Assembly: GCA_039917955.1 (NCBI GenBank)
Contig: JBDSIN010000143.1
Span: 1 to 35,589, forward strand
Direction of reading: 5' to 3'
DNA length: 35,589 nt
Source of the DNA: Candidatus Limnocylindria bacterium
Lineage (GTDB): Bacteria > Chloroflexota > Limnocylindria > QHBO01
Positions 1,574-35,351 of the stretch are shown here, one piece after another. Position 1 is the stretch's first letter, and the number at the start of each line of letters is the position of its first letter. The notes beneath the pieces were generated by a model that did no database searches, was not told the DNA's origin, and saw only the letters and a program-made list of their open reading frames with translations. A program made the position numbers and the translations under genes.

Positions 1574-2449
1574 ATGGCGCTGCCCGTCGACGGCCCGGCC
1601 GGGGCTCCCCCGAGTCCGGGCGTGTCCCGCCTTGCCTGGATCGATCTGCCACCGCCTGCGCTCGCGCTTGCCGGTGCACTGGGGCTCGTGGCCGTGATCG
1701 CAAGCGCCGTCATCGTCGCGTCGCCCTTCGAGGCCGCCGCCTTCGGGGGCCTGACCGTCCCGACGGTCCTGGGGGCGGGCGTGCTCGATGGGCTCAACCC
1801 GTGTGCCTTCGCCCTGCTCGTCCTGTTCGCCACGTACACGCTGACCCTGGTCAACGCCGTGACCGCGTCCGGCGATCCGACCGCGCTGGCCCGCAGACGT
1901 CTGCTGGGCGCCGGTTCGCTGTATGTCGGGGCCGTCTGGATCACCTACTTCCTCGTCGGCCTCGGGCTGTTCACCTTCCTGGCCTGGCTCGGTGAGGATC
2001 ACCTGGTCACCCGTGTCGCCGCGGTGCTGGCCCTGCTGATGGGTCTGTGGATGGTCAAGGACGTCCTGTTCCCGCGGTTCGGTCCGGCTCTGGCGGCTCC
2101 TCAGGCCACCCATGGCTGGATGCACAGGGCCATGGAGCGCGGCGGGCTTGGCGGGATGTTGCTGGCCGGCGTCCTGGTGGGCCTATGCACCGTGCCCTGC
2201 TCGGGGGCGATCTACCTGGCCATCGTGGCGGTTCTGCATGCCTCCGGCGGAGGTGCCACCGGCTTGGCGCTGCTGGCGCTTTACAACCTGGCCTACATCG
2301 TCCCGCTGGTGGTCCTGCTGGCTGTGGTCAGCAATCGCCGGGTACTGGGCCGGATGGGCCGGTGGAACCGGGCCAACTCACCGTGGGTCAGGGTGGGTCT
2401 GGCCGCCGCAGTCATCGTCATGAGCCTCGGCCTGCTGATCACGCTGTAG
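1574..2449 (+). CDS. CcdA/DsbD-family (DsbD_2) transmembrane thiol:disulfide or metal transporter
   Basis: Polytopic protein with the two hallmark Cys motifs, LDGLNPCAF and LCTVPCSGAIYL. ATG lies 2 nt after the upstream stop. Paralog at 12241-13113. Confidence 0.8.
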   Translation: MALPVDGPAGAPPSPGVSRLAWIDLPPPALALAGALGLVAVIASAVIVASPFEAAAFGGLTVPTVLGAGVLDGLNPCAFALLVLFATYTLTLVNAVTASGDPTALARRRLLGAGSLYVGAVWITYFLVGLGLFTFLAWLGEDHLVTRVAAVLALLMGLWMVKDVLFPRFGPALAAPQATHGWMHRAMERGGLGGMLLAGVLVGLCTVPCSGAIYLAIVAVLHASGGGATGLALLALYNLAYIVPLVVLLAVVSNRRVLGRMGRWNRANSPWVRVGLAAAVIVMSLGLLITL

Positions 2450-2541
2450 GACAGGCGACGCTTCCTGGGCTTGGCCGGACAGCGTACGCACGCCCTCCGC
2501 GAACAGGCACAACGGGTTCTCGCGCCTGTGACGCTGGCTTG

Positions 2542-2568
2542 CTCACGAAGGCCTCATCTCGTTCTCAG
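2542..2568 (+). promoter_or_regulatory. Phased CTCA box (site S1), upstream of the response-regulator operon
   Basis: CTCACgaaggcCTCATctcgttCTCAG, with repeat starts at 2542/2553/2564 (exact 11-nt period). Confidence 0.45.
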
Positions 2569-2697
2569 CATACGAGGCAAGAGTGGTTTGCCGGGGAATC
2601 GGTCGTCGCGTAAGGTCGTAAGTAGGGCGAAGCCCTACGATGGGCGCGTCATGAGCGACATGCCGGCCATGGGCAACTACGGGAGAACTCCACCGCC

Positions 2698-3378
2698 ATG
2701 AGTGAGGCCGCGCGCATCCTGGTCATCGACGACGATCCCAAGATCAGGGCGGTCGTGCGCCGCGGCCTGGCCTACGAGGGCTATCGCGTGGTCGAGGCGG
2801 GCAGCGGGGAGGAGGGGCTCGAGAAGGCCCGCGAGCATCTACCGGACCTGGTCGTCCTCGACATCATGCTGCCGGGCATGGACGGGTTGGAGGTCACGCG
2901 CCGACTGCGCTCTGCCGGTGACCAGGTCGCGATCCTGATGCTGACGGCGCGCGACCAGGTGACCGACCGGGTCGAGGGCTTGGAGACCGGCGCCGACGAC
3001 TACCTCGTCAAGCCGTTCAGCTTCGAGGAGCTTCTGGCCCGTGTCCATGCCCTGCTGCGGCGGCGAACCAGCCCCGCCGGCGAGACCCTGCGCTTCGCCG
3101 ACCTTGAGCTGGACGTCGACGCGCGCGAGGCACGCCGTGGCGCCCGCGTCGTCGAGTTGACCACCACCGAGTTCAACCTGCTCCTGCTGCTTCTGCGCCA
3201 CCCGCGCAAGGTGCTGACCCGCGACATCATCATGGAGCACGTATGGGCGTACGACTTCGACGGCGAGTCGAACGTACTGGAGGTATATGTTCGCTACCTG
3301 CGCAACAAGCTGGAAGCGAATGGCGAGTCCCGCCTGATCCAGACCGTCCGCGGGGCTGGCTACGTCCTCAAGGAGTGA
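2698..3378 (+). CDS. OmpR/PhoB-family response regulator
   Basis: Receiver domain (ILVIDDD...[13 protein letters not shown]...KPF) plus winged-helix output domain ([22 protein letters not shown]...VRGAGYVL). Confidence 0.95.
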
Positions 3379-11408: not shown

Positions 11409-11756
11409 ATGAGCATGTCAGCCGGTGATCGAGGGGGTGCTGTTCGGCACGCCCAGCGAGCAGCCGGCCAGGCCTCCGCCGTCGCCACCATGATCGCGGG
11501 CAGCCGGCCATTCGCCGACGTGGCGCAGCAGCTGCTCGCCGCACGTGGATCGCTCGACTCACTGCTCGTGCGCCTTGTCGAACTCGAACTTGAGGGTTGC
11601 GTCCCGAACCCCACGGCGCGCAGGGAGGTGCACGAATTGCTGCACTCCGCGAGGGGGCGGGCGGGACACAGCCGGCACGCGGCTCGCTCGCGGATCGGCC
11701 GGCCGCCGGAGGAGGCGGAACCGCCACGTGTCTTGGAAGGAAGGACATCTTCATGA
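11409..11756 (+). CDS. CsoR/RcnR-family (DUF156) transcriptional repressor, non-canonical ligand set
   Basis: Helical pattern AQRAAGQASAVATMIAGSRPFADVAQQLLAARGSLDSLLVRLVELELEGCV aligns by eye to the CsoR core. The first Cys is replaced by F and the His by E. Confidence 0.65.
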   Translation: MSMSAGDRGGAVRHAQRAAGQASAVATMIAGSRPFADVAQQLLAARGSLDSLLVRLVELELEGCVPNPTARREVHELLHSARGRAGHSRHAARSRIGRPPEEAEPPRVLEGRTSS

Positions 11757-26621: not shown

Positions 26622-27368
26622 ATGACGGTGATCCTCGAAGCGCACGACCTGGTCAAGAGCTACCCGCTCGGCGGGCGCTCGGTGGAAGCGCTGCGAGGCG
26701 TCTCCCTGTCGGTGACCAAGGGCGAGTTCGTGGCGATCATGGGCAGCTCGGGCTCAGGCAAGTCAACCATGCTCCACCTGCTCGGCGGACTCGATCGTCC
26801 CACCAGCGGCGAGGTGGTGATCGACGGCGTGAACCTGAGCCAGCTCAACGATGAGCAGGCGACCCTCACCCGTCGTGCCAAGACCGGCTTCGTCTTCCAG
26901 TTCTTCAACTTGATCCCGCTGCTCAACGTTGCGGAGAACGTGGCGTTGCCGTTCCTGATTGCAGGCGAATCGCTCGCCCAGCACCGCCAGCGCGTGCAGG
27001 AGCTGCTCGCCCTGGTTGGCCTGGAGGACAAGGCCGCCCACCGCCCCGACCAGCTCTCCGCAGGCGAGCAGCAGCGTGTGGCGCTCGCTCGAGCGCTGGC
27101 CCCGGAGCCGGCGATCCTGCTCGCCGACGAGCCGACCGGCAATCTGGACTACACCACCGGCACCGAGATCCTCGATCTCATCTGGGACTCGTGTGACCGC
27201 CTCGGCCAGACGATCGTGCTGGTGACGCACGACGCGCGGGCCGCCGCGTACGCGGACCGGGTCCTGGTCGTTCGCGACGGCAGCATCCGCGACGAGATTG
27301 CGCTCGGCCGTCGCCGCGATCATGAGGCCCGACCGCTCATCGCCCGCCTGGCCGCGCTGGGTCTCTAG
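26622..27368 (+). CDS. ABC transporter ATP-binding protein (MacB/FtsE-like)
   Basis: GSSGSGKST, LSAGEQQRVALARAL and ILLADEPTGNLD. Confidence 0.9.
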   Translation: MTVILEAHDLVKSYPLGGRSVEALRGVSLSVTKGEFVAIMGSSGSGKSTMLHLLGGLDRPTSGEVVIDGVNLSQLNDEQATLTRRAKTGFVFQFFNLIPLLNVAENVALPFLIAGESLAQHRQRVQELLALVGLEDKAAHRPDQLSAGEQQRVALARALAPEPAILLADEPTGNLDYTTGTEILDLIWDSCDRLGQTIVLVTHDARAAAYADRVLVVRDGSIRDEIALGRRRDHEARPLIARLAALGL

Positions 27369-27372
27369 ACCG

Positions 27373-29913
27373 ATGCACCTGGCGGCGCTCGCCTGGCGCG
27401 GCCTCGTCGCGCGGCGCCTGCGCACCGGGCTGACGATCATCGGCGTGGCCCTTGGGGTGGCGGTGGTCGCCGGCACGCTGCTCGCCAACCAGGCCGCCTC
27501 CGAGGCGGTCGAGCGTGCCGCCGCGCAAATGATGGGCAGCGCCGAGCTACGCGTGCGAGCCTTCGATCCGGTCGGTTTCTCTCCCCGGGCGGTCACCACG
27601 CTGCGCCAGATTCCCGGGGTCCTTGGCGCAGCGGCCGTTGCCGAGCGGCGCCTGACCGTCTCCACCCTCCCCGGTCCCGATGAACAAGTCTTCAGCCTCC
27701 TCCTGGTGATCGGGGTTGACGCGAAGGACGAAGCGCAGATTCGCACGTACGACCTGGAGGCTGGCGCATTCGTCGAACCCGACAGCCCGAATGACGCGCT
27801 CGTCAATGCTGCCTGGGCACGAGCCAATGGGCTCGTGCTGGGCGACCAGCTGATTCTCACCGGCCACCGCGAAGACGTGCAGCCCCTGCGGATCGTCGGG
27901 CTGCTCGGTGACCTCGGGATCGGCGCCCTCTCCCAGGGCAATGTGCTGGTGATGCACCGATCGACGCTTGCGGCCGCCTTCGAGGAGCCGCCGCCGGTCA
28001 CCTACGTGGACCTGCTGCTGGCCCCTGGCCGCGTGGAGGACGTCCAGAACGCGCTCGATCGAGACCTCGGCGAGCCATTCATCGTGGAGACCGCTGCGGA
28101 CGCGGCGCGCCAGCTCGGCCGCGCCCAGGCGGGATTCGCCGGGATCTCCTTCGTGTTCGGCCTGATCGCGCTCCTGGTCGGTGCGTTCCTGGTCGCGAAT
28201 ACGCTCGCCATGACGGTGACGGAGCGCACCCGTGAGATCGGGCTGCTGCGCGCCGCCGGGGCGACGCGAGGACAGGTGCGGGGCCTCTTCCTACGGCAGG
28301 GCGTCGTCATCGGGCTGATCGGAAGCATTCTCGGAGCGGCTCTGGGCATCGGTCTTGCCGCGCTCGCCATCGGGTTCCTGCATTCGACCCGGGCGGTGCT
28401 GGTGACCGGGCTGCCGCTGAATCCGCTTGCGCTGGGGCTGTCCCTGCTGATGGGTGTGGCGGTGACCGCGGCCGCCGCTACCATCCCGGCCATCGCGGCC
28501 AGCCGCGTCTCTCCGCTCGACGCGCTGCGGTCTAGCCGCCAGCCTGGGCGCAGCCTGGGGGCGCGATTGCGCTGGATCGTGGTCCTGGAGGCGCTCGTCC
28601 TGGCCATCGGGGCGGTCCTGTACCCCCTTGACCGCGGCGAATTCTCGCCGGCGGCGGTGGTCGGGGCGCTGGCGATCCTGATCGCCGGGACGGGGGCGAC
28701 CGCGCTCCTGCTCCAGCCGCTGGCGCGGGTGGTTGGCCGTCCGTTCGAATGGTTCTTCGGGGCGGAGGGGATGCTGGGGCGCGCCAACCTCGGCCGCGAC
28801 CGAGCCCGTACCGGCCTTACCGTGGGAGCGCTGATCGTGGCCCTGGCATCGGTTGTCGCGCTGGGGACGATCACCGAGAGCGCGAGAGCCACCGCTGACC
28901 GATGGGTCGGCTCGATCCTGCCGGGTGGCTATGCGATCCGGCTTGGGCTACCAGTGGAGGTCGACGCCTTGCGTACCGACTTCGAGGCCACCGCCGGTGC
29001 CGCCGCCGCTTCGCCGATCGTCGAATTCCCCGCGGTCGCACGCCAGGGCGAGGCACCGGCCCAGGAGGCGTCGCTGGCGGGGATCGATCCGAACGTCTTC
29101 GACGCGACCGGGTCGCTCATCTTCGTCCACGGCGATCGGGCAACCGCCTTCCAGGCGCTGCGTGACGGTGGCGCGGTGCTCCTTCCGGAGCCCTTTGCCG
29201 GCGAGGAAATGGGGGTCGGCTCGATCGTCTGGCTCTCGCTTCCTGGTGAGGAGGAGCAGGCGTTTGCGGTCGCCGGCGTCATCGCCTATACGCTTCCCGC
29301 ACGTTCCGCGGACGGTGCCATCCTGCTCTCGCTGACCGATGCCGCCGAGCGCTTCGGCGCCACACGTTCCTCCCTGTGGACCTTCATCCCGCAGGACGGG
29401 ATCACCGAAGGCGCCTTCCAGTCCGCCGTCGCTGCCAAGGCGATGTCGTACGCAGGTGAGGCGATCACCGCGCGCGAACTCGCGTCTGATCTCGGACGGT
29501 CGATCGACCGGCTCATCGGTCTCTTTGACGTGCTGGCCCTGCTGGCGGTGATCATCGCCGCGCTCGGCGTGCTCAATACACTGGCGGTGGGGGTCGTCGA
29601 GCGCGCGCGCGAGATCGCCATCCTGCGCTCCCACGGCATGACCATCGGCCAGGTTCAGGCGATGGTCGTCTCTGAGGCCGCGATCATGGGCGCGGTCGGA
29701 GGGATCGCTGCGGTCGCCACCGGGCTGCTGATCGCGTGGACCATCGTTGGCGGCTCGACGCCGCGCGATTTCGGCGCCGGCCTGGCGCTGCCGTGGCCGC
29801 TGCTCCTCAGCGTGGTGCTGATCGGGATCGGCGTTGCGTCGCTGGCCGGTCTGTACCCGGCTCGCTTGGCCGCGCGAACGCCGATCTCACGCAGCATCCA
29901 GCACTTCGAATAG
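27373..29913 (+). CDS. Fused double FtsX-domain ABC permease (YbbP-like, about 846 aa)
   Basis: ALAWRGLVARRLRTGLTIIGVALGV helix. Two FtsX cores, TERTREIGLLRAAGATRGQV and VERAREIAILRSHGMTIGQV. Confidence 0.85.
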   Translation: MHLAALAWRGLVARRLRTGLTIIGVALGVAVVAGTLLANQAASEAVERAAAQMMGSAELRVRAFDPVGFSPRAVTTLRQIPGVLGAAAVAERRLTVSTLPGPDEQVFSLLLVIGVDAKDEAQIRTYDLEAGAFVEPDSPNDALVNAAWARANGLVLGDQLILTGHREDVQPLRIVGLLGDLGIGALSQGNVLVMHRSTLAAAFEEPPPVTYVDLLLAPGRVEDVQNALDRDLGEPFIVETAADAARQLGRAQAGFAGISFVFGLIALLVGAFLVANTLAMTVTERTREIGLLRAAGATRGQVRGLFLRQGVVIGLIGSILGAALGIGLAALAIGFLHSTRAVLVTGLPLNPLALGLSLLMGVAVTAAAATIPAIAASRVSPLDALRSSRQPGRSLGARLRWIVVLEALVLAIGAVLYPLDRGEFSPAAVVGALAILIAGTGATALLLQPLARVVGRPFEWFFGAEGMLGRANLGRDRARTGLTVGALIVALASVVALGTITESARATADRWVGSILPGGYAIRLGLPVEVDALRTDFEATAGAAAASPIVEFPAVARQGEAPAQEASLAGIDPNVFDATGSLIFVHGDRATAFQALRDGGAVLLPEPFAGEEMGVGSIVWLSLPGEEEQAFAVAGVIAYTLPARSADGAILLSLTDAAERFGATRSSLWTFIPQDGITEGAFQSAVAAKAMSYAGEAITARELASDLGRSIDRLIGLFDVLALLAVIIAALGVLNTLAVGVVERAREIAILRSHGMTIGQVQAMVVSEAAIMGAVGGIAAVATGLLIAWTIVGGSTPRDFGAGLALPWPLLLSVVLIGIGVASLAGLYPARLAARTPISRSIQHFE

Positions 29914-29922
29914 GGAGGGACG

Positions 29923-30351
29923 ATGCCTGCGCGCATCTGGGAGGCGTCCGCCGGGCGCGCGTTCGTGCTGCTGCTGGAGAAGGGCGACGATCTGCTCGCG
30001 GAGGTCGAGCGGATCTGCAAGGAGTACGAGATCGTGGTCGCCTGGGTGAGTGCCATCGGTGCCGTCCGGCGCGCGTCCTTCGGCTACTACCAGCAGGGGC
30101 CGCAGAGCTACGTGGAGATGCTCAGCGACCGCCACACCATGCTGAATGGTTTTGTCGGGAACATCTCGGTCGCCGAGGGACGCCCGTTCCTCCACGCGCA
30201 CGCCACTTTCTCCGCGGTCGATGGATCGAACGTCGGCGGACACCTGCTGCCCGGCTGCGAGGTCTTCGCCGTGGAGGTCACCATTCGCGAGATGACCGGC
30301 CTGGAGCTCGAGCGGACCCCCGACGAGGTGACCGGCCTGCCCCTCTGGTAG
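29923..30351 (+). CDS. PPC (DUF296) domain protein
   Basis: AFVLLLEKGDDLLAEVERICKEYEI...GAVRRASFGYY...GNISVAEGRPFLHAHATFS...GGHLL. SD GGGAGGGA. Confidence 0.75.
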   Translation: MPARIWEASAGRAFVLLLEKGDDLLAEVERICKEYEIVVAWVSAIGAVRRASFGYYQQGPQSYVEMLSDRHTMLNGFVGNISVAEGRPFLHAHATFSAVDGSNVGGHLLPGCEVFAVEVTIREMTGLELERTPDEVTGLPLW

Positions 30352-30366
30352 GTCGCCGCAGCGGCT

Positions 30367-30428
30367 CCCGTACAATGGCTGCCGCGCGCGCCCGTAGCTC
30401 AGCGGACAGAGCGGGTGGCTTCGGACCA
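30367..30428 (+). repeat. Left copy of direct repeat (tRNA-Arg promoter region plus 5' half)
   Basis: cccgtacaatggctgc...gcgcccgtagctcagcggacagagcgggtggcttcggacca. By eye, 57 of 59 aligned positions match 33845-33903, plus a 3-nt indel. Confidence 0.8.
30388..30428 (+). pseudogene. Truncated tRNA-Arg (5' half only, ends in the anticodon arm)
   Basis: Acceptor strand, D-arm and anticodon loop CTTCGGA are present. Homology stops after cca, and no T-arm or 3' acceptor strand follows. Confidence 0.7.
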
Positions 30429-30600
30429 GAAACCCCGATGCGCTGTGCTTCGAGCGTGGACCGCCGACCGAAATGCGTCGAGGTATCCGCTGTCTTGAAG
30501 ACCCCACGATGCACTTGATAAGCGTGCCAGATCGCGACCAACCGTCCGTTTGACTCACGGCCTGCAACATGCAGCCCGTGCCGGGTGTCAAGCAGGTGAG

Positions 30601-31137
30601 ATGCTCCGCACGGAGATGGTCATGACCGGGGGTTCGCGCACCACTATCGACGACCCGCGTAACTCCGCCGCCGCCGAGTTCGATGAGCGGTTCTCCGCGA
30701 TGCGCCCACGACTGCTCGCCCTCTGTCGCGGACTGGCTGGACCCGATGCCGCCGAGGACGTCGTGCAGGACACTTACCTGCGCGGCCGTCAGCGCCTGAC
30801 GCAATTGAGGGATCACCAGGCCCTGGAAGCGTGGTTGGCGCGGATCGCCGTCAACGGGGCGCACAACTATCGACGGCATCGACACGGCTGGCTGGACTGG
30901 CTACCTGACCCGGTCGCGCATCGGCTCCCGGCAGCACCGGGGAGGGATGCCGGCCTTCGCGAGTTGATCGAGGCGCTGCCCGCACGGCAGAGAACCGTCC
31001 TCATCCTTCACCACGGCTACGGCTACGACCTGGCCGAGATCGCCGAGCTGCTGACGCTGTCTCACACGAACGTGCGCACCATCATCCGCCGCACGCGCCT
31101 GCTCCTGGCTGCCCAGGTCCGGGAGGCAGGCCGATGA
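30601..31137 (+). CDS. ECF (group IV) sigma-70 family sigma factor
   Basis: Region 2 [16 protein letters not shown]...[15 protein letters not shown]. Region 4 [41 protein letters not shown]. Start could be 30601, 30616 or 30622. Confidence 0.85.
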
Positions 31138-32600
31138 GTGCCGACCGGTTCAGCGATGAGGTCTATCGGCTCATCGTCGGCGGCGACGAGCTGCCGGAGC
31201 GTGCCGCCGTGCACGTCCGAACCTGCCAGCCCTGTCAGGCGGCGATGGCTGACGCCCACCAGTTCCTGGCCCAGCTGGATGCGGCCAGCGCCGCCTTCGC
31301 CAGCCCGGGTATTCCGGATCTGCGCATGACACTCGGCGCAGAACCCGCCGGCCGTCCCGGTCGGACGAGGCGCTTCGCGGCCTTCGCGGCCGTGATCGCG
31401 CTCGCGCTGGTCGCGACGTTCCTGACCTTCGCCTACAGCCCGTTCGTGGGTCCCGCGCCCAGCGCCAGCGCGTCGCCAAGCGCCACGCCGGCACCGTCGG
31501 GGAGTCCGCCTCCCTCGGAGACTCCGGCTCCTCCGACTGGGGCGCCGTCGCCGACTGCACGCGCCGCGAGCTGGAGCGCGACCGGCAGCATGGCCACGGC
31601 GCGCGCGCGGCACACGGCCACCCTGCTCGCCGACGGCAAGGTCCTGGTGGCGGGCGGTTACGGCAGCGGACTGACCTCCGCCGCGCTCTACGACCCGAGC
31701 AGCGGGACGTGGAGCGCCACCGGCAGCATGACCACGGCGCGCAGTTCCCACACGGCCACTTTGCTCGCCGACGGCAAGGTCCTGGTAGTGGGTGGTGGCA
31801 GCGACCTCGTCGCAATGCTGGCGTCCGCCGAGCTCTATGACCCGAGCAGCGGGACGTGGAGCGCCACCGGCAGCCTGACCACGGCGCGCAGTTCCCACAC
31901 GGCCACTTTGCTCGCCGACGGCAGGGTGCTGGTGGCGGGCGGTTACGGCAACGGCGGCCAACTGGCCTCCGCCGAGCTCTACGACCCGAGCACCGGGACG
32001 TGGGGCGCCACCGGCAGCATGACCATGGCACGCTTGGGGCACACGGCCACCCTGCTCCCCGACGGCAAGGTCCTGGTAGTGGGTGGTGGCGACCCCTCCG
32101 GCTCCGGCGACCCCGACGCCCCCGTCGACTACCTCGCATCCGCCGAGCTCTATGACCCGAGCAGCGGGACGTGGAGCGCCACCGGCAGCCTGACCGCGGC
32201 GCGCAGTTTCCACACGGCCACTTTGCTCGCCGACGGCAGGGTGCTGGCGGCAGGCGGCTTCGGCTCCGGCACCGAACTGGCCTCCGCTGAACTCTACGAC
32301 CCGAGCAGCGGGAGGTGGAGCGCCACCGGCAGCCTGATCACGGCGCGCGTTTACCACACGGCCACCCTGCTCGCCGACGGCAGGGTGCTGGTGGCGGGTG
32401 GCCCACTGCTGGCCTCCGCTGAACTCTACGACCCGAGCAGCGGGAGGTGGAGCGCCACCGGCAGCATGACCACGGCGCGCGCGTTGCACACGGCCACGCT
32501 GCTGAGAGACGGCAAGGTTCTGGTGGGCGGTGGCGACGCCTCCAGCTCCGGCGAAGTCTTGGACTCCGCCGAGCTCTACGACCCGGGATCCGGATCGTGA
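31134..32600 (+). CDS. zf-HC2 anti-sigma factor fused to extracytoplasmic 7-blade Kelch-type beta-propeller
   Basis: ATGA coupling to the sigma gene. HVRTCQPC (H-x3-C-x2-C), a TM helix [19 protein letters not shown] and a Pro/Ser linker. Seven [39 protein letters not shown] repeats plus a closing strand. Confidence 0.8.
31566..32597 (+). repeat. Tandem array of about 140-170-nt Kelch-blade repeats with long near-identical DNA stretches
   Basis: For example, roughly 100 nt starting near 31686 and near 31835 differ at about 4 positions by eye. Confidence 0.8.
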
Positions 32601-32787
32601 GACCGCCCGCAACTGACGTTACCGGCGTAGTGGCCGCGGGTTACCACGGGTCAGTCGGGATCGCCGTTGCCGTGGTTCAGATGACAGCTCGGATGGTCGC
32701 TGAACCTTGACCGACGGCCCACACTACGCTGTGTTCGGGGCATGGCGGAGATTGGCCCCAGACCGGGCATTCGAGTCTGGAGGGACC

Positions 32788-33702
32788 ATGCGGCGTCTGT
32801 CGGTCTTGCTCGGTGCGACTGCCATCCTGCTCGCGGCTTGCGGCGGACAAGGCACACCTACCCTCTCACCGACGGCGACAGCCGTGGCCGCGACTGCGAC
32901 ACCCGCCGCTCCGACGGAGACCCCTTCTCCTGCTCCGAGCAGCGGGACGTGGAGCGCCACCGGCAGCATGACCACGGCACGCTATGTCCACACGGCCACC
33001 CTGCTCGCCGACGGCAAGGTCCTGGCGGCGGGTGGCCTCCCCGTTGGTTTCGGGCGCACCTTGCTGGCCTCCGCCGAGCTGTACGACTCGAGCACCGGGA
33101 CGTGGAGCGCCACCGGCAGCATGACCACGGCGCGCGTGTACCACACGGCCACCCTGCTGGCCGACGGCAAGGTGCTGGTGGCAGGCGGCGGCGGCGGCTC
33201 CACACCGGTGACGGCCTCCGCCGAGCTCTACGACCCGAGCAGCGGGACGTGGAGCGCCACCGGCGACATGATCACGGCGCGCTCGTTGCACTCGGCCACC
33301 CTGCTCGCCGATGGCAAGGTCCTGGTGGCGGGCGGCCATGACCCCGGCGAAGCTTTTGCCTCCGCCGAGCTGTACGACTCGAGCAGCGGGACGTGGAGCG
33401 CCATCGGCAGCCTGACCACGGCACGCACGGGGCACACGGCCACGCTGCTCGCCGATGGCACGGTCCTGGTGGCGGGCGGCAACATCTCCGCAGAGCTCGG
33501 CGCACCGCTGGCCTCCGCCGAGCTGTACGACCCGAGTACCGGGTCATGGAGCGCCACCGGCAGCATGACAACGACGCGCTCGGGGCACACGGCGACGCTG
33601 CTCGCCGATGGCACGGTCCTAGTGGCGGGCGGGCAAGGCCCTAGCCCCTCCTTCGATGTTTTGGCCTCCGCTGAGCTCTACGACCCGAGTAGCGGGAGCT
33701 GA
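32788..33702 (+). CDS. Kelch-repeat lipoprotein (5 blades plus closing strand)
   Basis: GGAGGGA SD element. Lipobox AILLAACGG. Five copies of the same blade consensus as 31134-32600. The same 16 nt (ACCGCCCGCAACT core) follow both stop codons. Confidence 0.8.
32941..33699 (+). repeat. Second Kelch-blade DNA repeat array, homologous to 31566-32597
   Basis: Repeated ctctacgacccgagcagcgggacgtggagcgccaccggcagcatgaccacggc... units. Confidence 0.8.
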
Positions 33703-33844
33703 AACCGCCCGCAACTAGGCTAACCCGCTGCGCGGATCGCCGGTCCGGAGCGCACGCTAGCGGACGCCCCTTGGCTGCGGCTCACCGCCTGCTTGTGCGG
33801 TAGACGGTCGTCACCATGGGGCGCTTCGCTCTGGCATGCCCCGG

Positions 33845-33903
33845 CCCGTACAATGGCTGCTCGCGCCCGTAGCTCAGCGGACAGAGCGGATGGCTTCGGA
33901 CCA
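33845..33903 (+). repeat. Right copy of direct repeat (tRNA-Arg promoter region plus 5' half)
   Basis: Matches 30367-30428 and continues into the intact tRNA. Confidence 0.8.
33849..33854 (+). promoter_or_regulatory. Candidate -10 hexamer TACAAT for tRNA-Arg
   Basis: TACAAT ends 8 nt before tRNA position 1. The same hexamer precedes the truncated copy (30371-30376). Confidence 0.4.
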
Positions 33904-33938
33904 TCAGGTCGCGGGTTCGATTCCTGCCGGGCGCGCCA
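33863..33938 (+). tRNA. tRNA-Arg (anticodon UCG), CCA encoded
   Basis: Manual cloverleaf fold. Acceptor GCGCCCG/CGGGCGC, D-arm GCTC-AGCGGACA-GAGC (A20), anticodon arm GATGG-CTTCGGA-CCATC, variable loop AGGTC, T-arm GCGGG-TTCGATT-CCTGC, discriminator G, CCA. Confidence 0.9.
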
Positions 33939-34364
33939 CAGCCATATAACTCGGGGAGGGCCGTTGGATGGGCCGGCCGACTAACCGAAAGGCGCCCGGC
34001 TGCAAGCTGACGGCACCGTTCCGGACTTTCTGCTCGAGGCGCCCAACTCCAGGCCGACGGACCACCTTCTCACGGTCATGGTTGACCCAGATAGCAACCT
34101 GCTCGGCAACGCGTGGATATCGTCTACTTCGATCCGAAGGGTCCTCGAGGCATCTCGACCGGCGGTGGGTAGGGTCAACCTCGCGTAGGTCGCCCGCTCA
34201 CGCCAACTTGCAGCGGCCCAGCGCAGCTACGCTCGGAGTCCCGCAACCGGCCAGGGCCGCACGATCGATATAGTGGCCGTCGGACCGGTCGATCCGCTTG
34301 TCGCGGCCGACTCGAAGTGTCGATGCTCCGAGCGGGGACAAGGCCGAGATCCGGAGGGACGGAT

Positions 34365-35189
34365 ATGCCTGCTGACGTGGTCGCGACCGTGGTTGCGCTG
34401 TGGCGCTATCCCGTGAAGTCGATGATGGGGGAGCAGCTCAACTCGGGCGAGGTGACCGACCGTGGCCTGCTGGGCGACCGGGGGTACGCCCTCGTCGATC
34501 GCGAGACCGGCAAGGTTGCGAGCGCGAAGTTCCCGCGGAAGTGGCCGACGCTGCTCGCTTATCGAGCGACGTACGTCGAGCCGCCAGCCGGCACCGACCG
34601 CCTGCCGGCGGTGCGGATCACGCTGCCGGACGGTCGGATCATCCGGAGCGACGACCCCGATGTTGACAGGGTCCTCTCGGCCGACCTCGGCCGTGACGTC
34701 GCCCTTGACCGCTCCGCGCCAGGGGCGCCGAGCCTCGAGCAGTACTGGCCCGACGTGGAAGGCCTCGATCACCGGGACGCGCTGACCGAGGAGGCGATGG
34801 CGCCCGGCACGTTCTTCGACGCCGGCATCGTCCACCTGCTGACGACCGCCACGCTCGAGAGGCTCCGCCAGTTCTACCCGGAGGGTCGCTTTGAGGTCCG
34901 CCGCTACCGACCGAACGTCGTCGTCAGCCCGACGGGCGGCCAAACCGGCTTCATCGAGAATGAATGGGTCGGGCGATCCTTGGCGATCGGCGACGAGGTC
35001 CGTCTGCGGATCACCAAGCCGTGCCAACGCTGCGTCATGACGACCATCGCCCAGGACGATCTGCCGAAGGACCCCGGCATCTTGCGGGCAGCGGCGCGAC
35101 ACAACAACGTGAACGTGGGCGTCTACGCCACGGTCGAGCGAGGCGGCCGGGTTCGCCGCAGCGATGAGGTGTGGCTTCCGCGGTCCTGA
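34365..35189 (+). CDS. MOSC domain protein (MOSC_N beta-barrel plus MOSC)
   Basis: LWRYPVKSMMGEQL...GLLGDRGYALVD...RYRPNVVV...KPCQRCVMTT with the conserved Cys. SD GGAGGGA. Confidence 0.85.
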   Translation: MPADVVATVVALWRYPVKSMMGEQLNSGEVTDRGLLGDRGYALVDRETGKVASAKFPRKWPTLLAYRATYVEPPAGTDRLPAVRITLPDGRIIRSDDPDVDRVLSADLGRDVALDRSAPGAPSLEQYWPDVEGLDHRDALTEEAMAPGTFFDAGIVHLLTTATLERLRQFYPEGRFEVRRYRPNVVVSPTGGQTGFIENEWVGRSLAIGDEVRLRITKPCQRCVMTTIAQDDLPKDPGILRAAARHNNVNVGVYATVERGGRVRRSDEVWLPRS

Positions 35190-35351
35190 GTCAGGTCGCC
35201 TGGAACAGCTGGTGCCGTGCCTCGCTGGCGAGTGCCGAGCACGATGCCGCCGAGCGACTGCGGCGGTACTGGACGGTCGTGACTCGCCCGCGGGAGGGAC
35301 TCTGACCTTCGGCCTCGCGTGGCGGGAACGGGCCGTGCTGGCGCACAAGGA

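Follow-up and report, generated by a model that had tools for sequence, protein, structure and literature searches.

Cassettes between a displaced 5′ half and an intact copy of tRNA-Arg(TCG): a probable integrase-less element in a Limnocylindria bacterium and its relatives in soil Chloroflexota

Introduction

Islands in tRNA genes that are associated with a 5′ fragment of their target are a documented minority. The Islander catalogue holds 159 islands with a 5′ tRNA gene (tDNA) fragment among 3919, i.e. ~4% (PMC4383910), and displacement of the 5′ tDNA is called "considerably less frequent" in a passage of PMC6563490 that cites Zhao & Williams (2002, J Bacteriol 184:859). We have analysed a locus of this polarity in Candidatus Limnocylindria bacterium (GenBank assembly GCA_039917955.1, contig JBDSIN010000143.1, whose 35,589 nt are hereafter called the window), in which a 5′ fragment of a tRNA-Arg(TCG) gene precedes the intact gene on the same strand, in direct orientation, with a cassette of sigma, anti-sigma and Kelch genes between them. 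The stretch from 30429 to 33862 is probably an integrase-less member, or a remnant, of a family of tRNA-Arg elements in which a tyrosine recombinase exchanges strands at the anticodon stem-loop and thereby replaces the gene's 5′ half, the cassette having later been gained or lost via the flanking repeats.

Like the 5′-fragment tRNA and tmRNA islands of Islander and TIGER, this family combines a tyrosine integrase, an anticodon-centred sublocation, an intact tDNA with a cognate fragment upstream in direct orientation, and a 5′ part that would be supplied by the element. The duplication of the 5′ part, which a preliminary description of the window made from its sequence had singled out as unusual, is genuine and already known from those ~4% of catalogued islands. 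In the window we found the fragment, the intact tRNA and, in related strains, the empty site; an integrase lies inside other members of the family (L026/L027, L028/L029 and L032). Unlike the catalogued islands, the window unit is devoid of an integrase, so that the Islander filters would reject it, and the family resides in uncultured Chloroflexota, with elements down to 2.6 kb. As far as literature searches show, the family is undescribed, although the process is known and the polarity is a known minority configuration.

Elements that pile up at one site are also known. In Streptococcus thermophilus, integrative and conjugative elements (ICEs) and their cis-mobilisable remnants (CIMEs) undergo tandem accretion, and IMEX elements exploit XerC/XerD at dif. 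The tycheposon islands of Prochlorococcus consist of element stacks separated by partial tRNAs, with degenerate remnants (bioRxiv 10.1101/2020.12.28.424599). The tRNA-Arg family resembles tycheposons and CIME/ICE systems in the stacking of elements at one tRNA gene with partial tRNA copies between them, in the presence of integrase-less remnants flanked by attachment (att) sites and in gene content that varies between strains. It differs from them in that its partial copies are 5′ halves, its arrays grow on the promoter side of the tRNA and its cassettes measure 0.9-6 kb. With IMEX elements it shares a Xer-like recombinase and integrase-less elements in tandem at a single site, whereas its target is a tRNA gene rather than dif, the Xer-like gene is carried inside family elements, and nothing suggests use of the housekeeping Xer pair.

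Results

The direct repeat and its tRNA-Arg(TCG) gene

The direct repeat reported in the preliminary description was recovered at exactly the same coordinates, 30367-30428 (62 nt) and 33845-33903 (59 nt), with 57 of 59 identities and one 3-nt indel located in the leader. Each copy consists of a TACAAT-type box (CCCGTACAATG), a short leader and positions 1-41 of tRNA-Arg(TCG). The 41-nt tRNA core has two occurrences in the window, at no more than one mismatch as well as at up to three, and 0.00 expected (100 shuffles). As anticipated, the right copy alone is part of a complete gene: ARAGORN and Rfam both identify it as the sole intact tRNA-Arg(TCG), with 66.9 bits, and the left copy received no tRNA call by ARAGORN and matched no Rfam family. 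The last base of the latter is tRNA position 41, within the 3′ strand of the anticodon stem, in keeping with the break near the anticodon loop noted in the preliminary description. The lower GC content of about 170 nt beyond it was likewise borne out, with 61% GC in the 172 nt from 30429 to 30600 and 69% in the remaining window.

The TACAAT box is invariant at -17..-12 of every chromosomal tRNA copy that we compared. Because a simple sigma-70 promoter and terminator scan yielded no full -35/-10 match and no terminator hits, the promoter roles assigned to the two boxes are putative. Apart from these roles, every factual point of the preliminary description was confirmed.

A family of loci with the same junction

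Approximately 25 related loci share the layout of the window: on the left, a chromosomal promoter, tRNA positions 1-41 and a conserved arm (P′); in the middle, a variable cassette; on the right, an element-borne arm and a whole tRNA. They belong to soil Chloroflexota and were found in Limnocylindria-like metagenome-assembled genomes (MAGs). The junction between position 41 and the P′ arm was detected in seven metagenome contigs by a junction scan, and in loci that harbour orthologues, down to 65% amino acid (aa) identity, of the PCC-domain protein encoded next to the left repeat in the window. We classified 40 copies. Twelve of them are left ends (attL), with a chromosomal promoter on their left and the P′ arm on their right, and eight are right ends (attR), with a second conserved arm (P2) on their left and the tRNA 3′ half on their right. 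Another 11, flanked by P2 on the left and P′ on the right, are internal, attP-like copies inside arrays, and 4 are attB-like.

The three fragment copies of the window and of one related locus, L004, share the blocks GAWACCCCGATGCGCTGTG..GAGCGTGG..CGACCRAA..CGAGKTATCCGCTGTC after position 41. The conserved P2 arm includes ..TTCCGCTCWGTTTGAGCGTGAAAYG. In both arms the tRNA D-arm motif ACAGAGCGG recurs in inverted form; in the P′ arm, the heptamer TCCGCTG is an inverted copy of the D-loop sequence CAGCGGA. From their sequences, these inverted motifs suit protein-binding sites.

The cassettes are small (0.9-6 kb, 1-4 genes), form arrays of up to four units and, among the loci found without integrase as bait, mostly lack an integrase. 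Their cargos are unrelated from one unit to the next and include Kelch proteins, sigma/anti-sigma pairs, a 1108-aa cyclase-STAND-TPR protein, an S8 peptidase, SH3 proteins, an acetyltransferase, Fic and AbiEii. In L004, the P′ arm and the sigma cassette are 91.5% identical to those of the window over 1251 nt and are preceded by another copy of tRNA positions 1-41. The sigma cassette is thus the second of an array, whose upstream cassette encodes an S8 peptidase, an amidase, a SnoaL protein and a truncated PHO4 protein and is itself preceded by a tRNA 1-41 copy. That upstream cassette terminates in the last 102 codons of the PHO4 phosphate-transporter gene (L004:5490-5798), a truncated chromosomal gene, which suggests imprecise capture of flanking DNA. 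A four-unit array with a divergent P′ arm (GAAACCCGGCNGCGGTGTGCTC..) was found at L032:8193-17597; it harbours genes for Fic, a PHD-like antitoxin, an integrase and Replic_Relax, together with fragments of IS110-type and rve-type transposases. Many contigs terminate at the repeats, as is typical of assembly breaks at repeated sequence.

Empty sites in related strains

We collected Chloroflexota MAG loci by a contig scan with the PCC protein (L001, L002 and L003), as well as contigs from independent sequencing runs of soil metagenomes (X1 to X5). The left flank of the cassette is 86-89% identical at the nucleotide level in the three MAG loci, up to 30358/30428. The arrangement expected of an unoccupied site, namely the PCC gene directly followed by a single tRNA-Arg, was searched for as the preliminary description had advised, and it was found in L001, X3, X4 and X5. 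In L001, whose PCC protein is 96% identical, the PCC stop codon is followed by 15 nt, the promoter and the whole tRNA. The X4 and X5 contigs (3752 and 3075 nt), approximately 97-99% identical to the window, join 30415 exactly to 33891, which skips 3475 nt; they match 30250-30428 with one mismatch and no gap and then run straight into the tRNA 3′ half. An X3 contig has the same layout at 93% identity. Universal conservation of the cassette, with identical junctions throughout the clade, would have spoken against an insertion and is contradicted by these sites; the composition of the cassette is host-like. In L002 and L003, the PCC gene and the tRNA are separated by other genes, for RCC1 and Kelch proteins encoded on the opposite strand, and no left fragment is present.

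The empty-site alleles of X4 and X5 have the leader length of the left copy and a G at position 28, and the right copy of the window has a leader shorter by 3 nt and A28. Because the empty-site alleles match the left copy on both counts, the latter appears to be native and the 5′ part of the working tRNA to have been imported. The exchange point would thus fall between positions 29 and 41.

The region downstream of the tRNA also differs between strains. The X4 empty-site contig has ~290 nt extra at ~33997, some 58 nt past the tRNA (window region 33939-34316), and 33936-34232 is missing from contigs of X2 and X3, so that the non-coding DNA beyond the tRNA 3′ end is strain-variable too.

Integrase-bearing members

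Three kinds of unit in the family carry an integrase gene. In L023, attL is followed by ~10 kb, and the identical element of L026 measures about 10.2 kb; in the matching Logan contigs, L026 and L027, the element is seen to end with a gene for a 315-aa tyrosine recombinase reading away from the tRNA, beyond which come the P2 arm and the 5′ end of the tRNA. L028/L029, located on a 244-kb MAG contig, show a complete 2589-nt unit in the order PCC gene, attL, Kelch gene, integrase gene, P2 arm and tRNA. In L032, one of the four units contains the integrase and Replic_Relax genes.

The integrase comprises the Pfam domains Phage_int_SAM_1 and Phage_integrase. Comparison with XerD (1a0p) revealed a complete R-K-HxxR-H/W-Y catalytic set (ATGARLSE, GKGQRER, HSFRH, GW, RY). 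Although Xer-like, the protein scores 143.7 and 124.7 bits against the NCBIfam XerC and XerD equivalogs, whose cut-offs are 335 and 330, and it is thus not a housekeeping XerC/XerD; its score with the NCBIfam integron-integrase profile is 46.9 for a cut-off of 265. Two integrase-less cassettes, in L009 and L014, retain the first ~40 integrase codons beside their P2 arm, and at least some integrase-less cassettes are therefore deletion derivatives.

The L028 unit (L028:9815-12479, minus strand) has a Kelch gene and the integrase gene as its sole genes. The 5′ acceptor strand supplied by this element reads GCGCCGG and the 3′ strand of its host CCGGCGC, as against GCGCCCG/CGGGCGC in the window. 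The two strands co-vary, and the tRNA variants of element and host therefore match.

The 3′ side of the tRNA-Arg gene is targeted as well. In L001, a gene for a large serine recombinase (XisF/CcrB-like; 1722-3245, minus strand) overlaps the tRNA 3′ end with its own 3′ end, and in L014 a 17-nt duplicate of the tRNA 3′ end (TCCTGCCGGGCGCGCCA) lies ~40 nt downstream of the tRNA (11416-11480). Together they look like a second element class, of conventional polarity. We considered the L001 enzyme as the recombinase of the cassettes and rejected it: it lies 3′ of the tRNA, where the 5′ site is unoccupied, and probably belongs to this separate 3′-targeting class.

Gene content of the window

The locus is organized in the order FtsX/MacB permease, PCC-domain protein, tRNA fragment, extracytoplasmic function (ECF) sigma factor, anti-sigma-Kelch protein, Kelch lipoprotein, intact tRNA, ~380 nt of non-coding DNA and MOSC-domain protein (Table 1).

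Table 1. Coordinates of the features at the tRNA-Arg(TCG) locus of the window
Feature	Coordinates	Strand	Remarks
FtsX/MacB permease	27298-29913		Upstream of PCC gene
PCC/PPC-domain gene, conserved left flank	29923..30351	+	Pfam PF03479, E=1e-25
Probably native tRNA promoter box CCCGTACAATG and leader, left repeat end	30367..30387	+	Continuous with PCC flank in empty-site L001, X4 and X5; putative promoter
Displaced, probably native tRNA-Arg(TCG) 5′ fragment, positions 1-41, attL core	30388..30428	+	G28 and leader length as in X4/X5 empty-site alleles
Element-borne P′ arm GAAACCCCGATGCGCTGTGCTTCGAGCGTGG..CGACCGAA..CGAGGTATCCGCTGTC	30429..30495	+	Position 41 followed by the same blocks in 23 further fragments, with unrelated cassettes
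Sigma gene promoter, probably ECF-type and autoregulated, TGCAACAT..N..GTGTCA	30563..30595	+	Kept upstream of sigma orthologues in L004, L005 and L006
ECF sigma factor, cargo	30601..31137	+	Pfam Sigma70_r2, r4_2; 96% identical orthologue in L004 behind a different cassette
Anti-sigma factor fused to 7-blade Kelch propeller, cargo	31134..32600	+	Pfam Kelch_4, 7 stretches; HxxxCxxC as HVRTCQPC; one transmembrane segment
Kelch lipoprotein, lipobox LLAAC, tandem paralogue of preceding gene, cargo	32788..33702	+	Pfam Kelch_4, 5 stretches; repeat families D1-D5
Right-end cassette spacer	33703..33844	+	No recognisable P2 arm (14 P arms aligned, z <= 3.3, mostly ~0); no integrase remnant (no tblastn hit)
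Second, probably imported promoter box and leader	33845..33862	+	3 nt shorter than left; empty-site allele has left-copy leader
Functional tRNA-Arg(TCG), probable chimera	33863..33938	+	Positions 1 to ~28-41 from element (A28), 3′ part native; A28/G28 compared with X4/X5 and L001

The first two cargo genes have the hallmarks of an ECF sigma factor and its zinc-associated anti-sigma (ZAS) factor, with sigma regions 2 and 4, an HxxxCxxC motif, one transmembrane segment and a 4-nt gene overlap (31134-31137). The motif upstream of the sigma gene is also found at L005:449-487 and L006:125-160, where the orthologues have no adjacent tRNA fragment, and it is probably the sigma factor's own promoter. 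In these two loci the sigma module is an ordinary chromosomal operon. The two adjacent Kelch genes contain 12 blades (31520-33632) made of DNA repeats of 132-171 nt with 61-83% identity, and they also share their 3′ ends and downstream DNA (32546-32614 and 33648-33716, 78%), as tandem paralogues. Kelch proteins are recurrent cargo, being found in L002, L003, L008, L013, L016 and L028.

Discussion

Two origins had been put forward in the preliminary description, a decayed and atypical integrative element or a tandem tRNA duplication into which the cassette was inserted. The former is supported by the empty sites, by the recurrence of the same junction and arm in ~25 loci and by the integrase-bearing members; the latter is not, as no locus has two intact tRNA-Arg genes. 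In the mechanism that we propose, the element circle would carry an attP made of a promoter-supplying arm, a copy of tRNA positions 1-41 and the P′ arm. The Xer-like tyrosine integrase would act on these sites, the strand exchange taking place in the anticodon stem-loop and, for the window, between positions 29 and 41. Insertion would leave the native promoter and 5′ half stranded at the left end and joined to the P′ arm (attL, 30367-30495), and the working tRNA (33845-33938) would then consist of the promoter and 5′ half of the element joined to the native 3′ half. Integrase-less cassettes may be moved or lost through the flanking repeats, by an integrase acting in trans or by homologous recombination.

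A number of observations weigh against this reading. The attL of the window is normal, and the right end of the cassette is atypical. The right copy of the repeat is not preceded by the P2 arm that is present at all 8 clear attR sites. In its place is a second chromosomal-type promoter box, as before the tRNA in L002 and L003, so that of the two arms of the window P′ is present and conserved and the right one is promoter-type. By eye, a degenerate P2 arm seemed to precede the right copy, but it was not significant relative to shuffled sequences and was dropped. The window contig may also derive from a longer array, through collapse or chimeric assembly, or represent one of several array variants. 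No integrase was found in the window, as already noticed in the preliminary description, either by Pfam searches of all open reading frames from 27298 to 35348 or by tblastn of the family integrase against the whole sequence. No circular or excised form was seen in the assembled contigs of the runs. In IMG/VR, three scans gave no match to the attL junction or to either of the arms, P2 and P′, and no attP; there is therefore no link to a recognised virus. The direction of the exchange, with a left copy that we take as native and an imported right 5′ half, depends on one single-nucleotide polymorphism and one 3-nt indel. Lastly, RecA-dependent deletion between the 59-62-nt repeats could equally yield the empty sites.

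The likely source sample, X1, contains a 1348-nt unitig (depth 13.7) that starts with the end of the tRNA core and a variant of the P′ arm and ends in the exact leader of the left copy (30371-30400). It represents another cassette, of 1.27 kb, with the same repeat ends and the same promoter-type arm, and the promoter-type arm therefore seems to circulate in the lineage, while the number of units in the array may be under-represented by the window contig. Lacking both an integrase and a recognisable standard right arm, the window cassette is either a remnant or a passenger mobilised in trans.

Among the alternatives, the one that fares best, although we consider it unlikely, is that homologous recombination alone accounts for the locus. 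The cassette would then have entered or left by RecA-mediated exchange with related strains, with the PCC/FtsX flank, the tRNA and the att repeats providing homology, and the att sequences would be inherited scars, without site-specific integration in this lineage. The absence of both an integrase and a standard P arm from the cassette agrees with this proposal. The cassette GC content at third codon positions (GC3, 0.80-0.87), which we compared with that of the flanks as suggested at the outset, equals it, so the donors would be close relatives. Both promoter copies of the window share the sequence GGCTGC, present in no relative, which suggests intragenomic homogenisation, and the repeats are long enough for a RecA deletion to have generated the X4 and X5 alleles. 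However, exchange by homology leaves the origin of attL unexplained. Nor does it account for the constant break at position 41 followed by the same arm, in loci with flanking genes as divergent as 65% aa identity, or for the integrase genes located exactly at the P arm. As it concerns the last step only, it is compatible with the element-based explanation, and the data cannot separate the two.

Decay of a tandem copy is very improbable. Two ancestral tRNA-Arg genes with their own promoters would have had the cassette genes between them, and the 3′ half of the left one would later have been deleted. The same promoter box and near-identical leader on both copies are in line with such a history, as is the resemblance of the right copy to an unoccupied attB. 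Nevertheless, two intact tRNA-Arg genes were found in 0 of ~25 related loci, the break is at the nucleotide shared with 23 other fragments and is followed by the family P′ arm, and strains 97-99% identical have a precise empty site. The notion that the tRNA 5′ half and the next ~70-150 nt form an RNA gene or leader, such as a regulatory RNA derived from a tRNA half and expressed from the tRNA promoter, has an intact promoter box on the left copy, an arm conserved across distant genomes and an invariant D-loop/arm pairing (CAGCGGA/TCCGCTG) in its favour, yet we regard it as the least credible of all and rejected it, since the P′ arm shows no RNA covariation (RNAalifold covariation term -0.28 kcal/mol; compensatory change in 2 of 28 pairs) and therefore fits a DNA site, the unit has no Rfam hit and precedes genes in both orientations, which is not expected of a gene-specific leader, and its motif is inverted in the P2 arm too, as befits protein-binding sites.

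Returning to the integrative element family, its outcome recalls that of integrons, with short, promoter-poor or self-promoted cassettes, a conserved recombination site between them, a fixed chromosomal anchor and strain-variable content. Unlike integrons, it has no intI at the anchor and no attC hairpins, its site is a tRNA gene, and its recombinase, when present, is cassette-borne and not of the IntI type. In the window itself, no integrase flanks the tRNA, and the repeat units are tRNA halves and arms devoid of a covarying hairpin. The likeness is therefore an analogy of outcome and does not imply membership. With this restriction, we tentatively raise the possibility, which we hold to be less likely than its contrary, that the tRNA-Arg(TCG) gene of this Chloroflexota class serves as a tRNA-anchored analogue of integrons, at which a cassette-borne Xer-like integrase might capture, stack and reshuffle in trans very small, mostly integrase-less cassettes on the promoter side; on this view the window cassette would still be active, as a passenger, rather than a dead scar.

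The loci of the family are easily overlooked. Searches for islands that depend on the presence of an integrase will pass them over, and because their repeats break short-read assemblies, they are therefore under-represented or collapsed in MAGs. They offer unusually clean material for studying how an essential tRNA gene can have its promoter and 5′ half taken over by an element, whose 5′ acceptor strand has to match the 3′ strand of the host. They also bear on the minimal size of an autonomous integrative element, the smallest one here being 2.6 kb with one cargo gene and the integrase, and they raise the question of whether integrase-less cassettes are shuffled in trans. If the integron analogy were true, an essential tRNA would have its promoter and 5′ half replaced at each insertion, and many of the cassettes so handled would encode secreted Kelch proteins, sigma/anti-sigma pairs or defence functions. 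For the organism studied here, a strain-variable gene block in abundant uncultured soil bacteria is accounted for as one unit of what is probably a widespread cassette hotspot.

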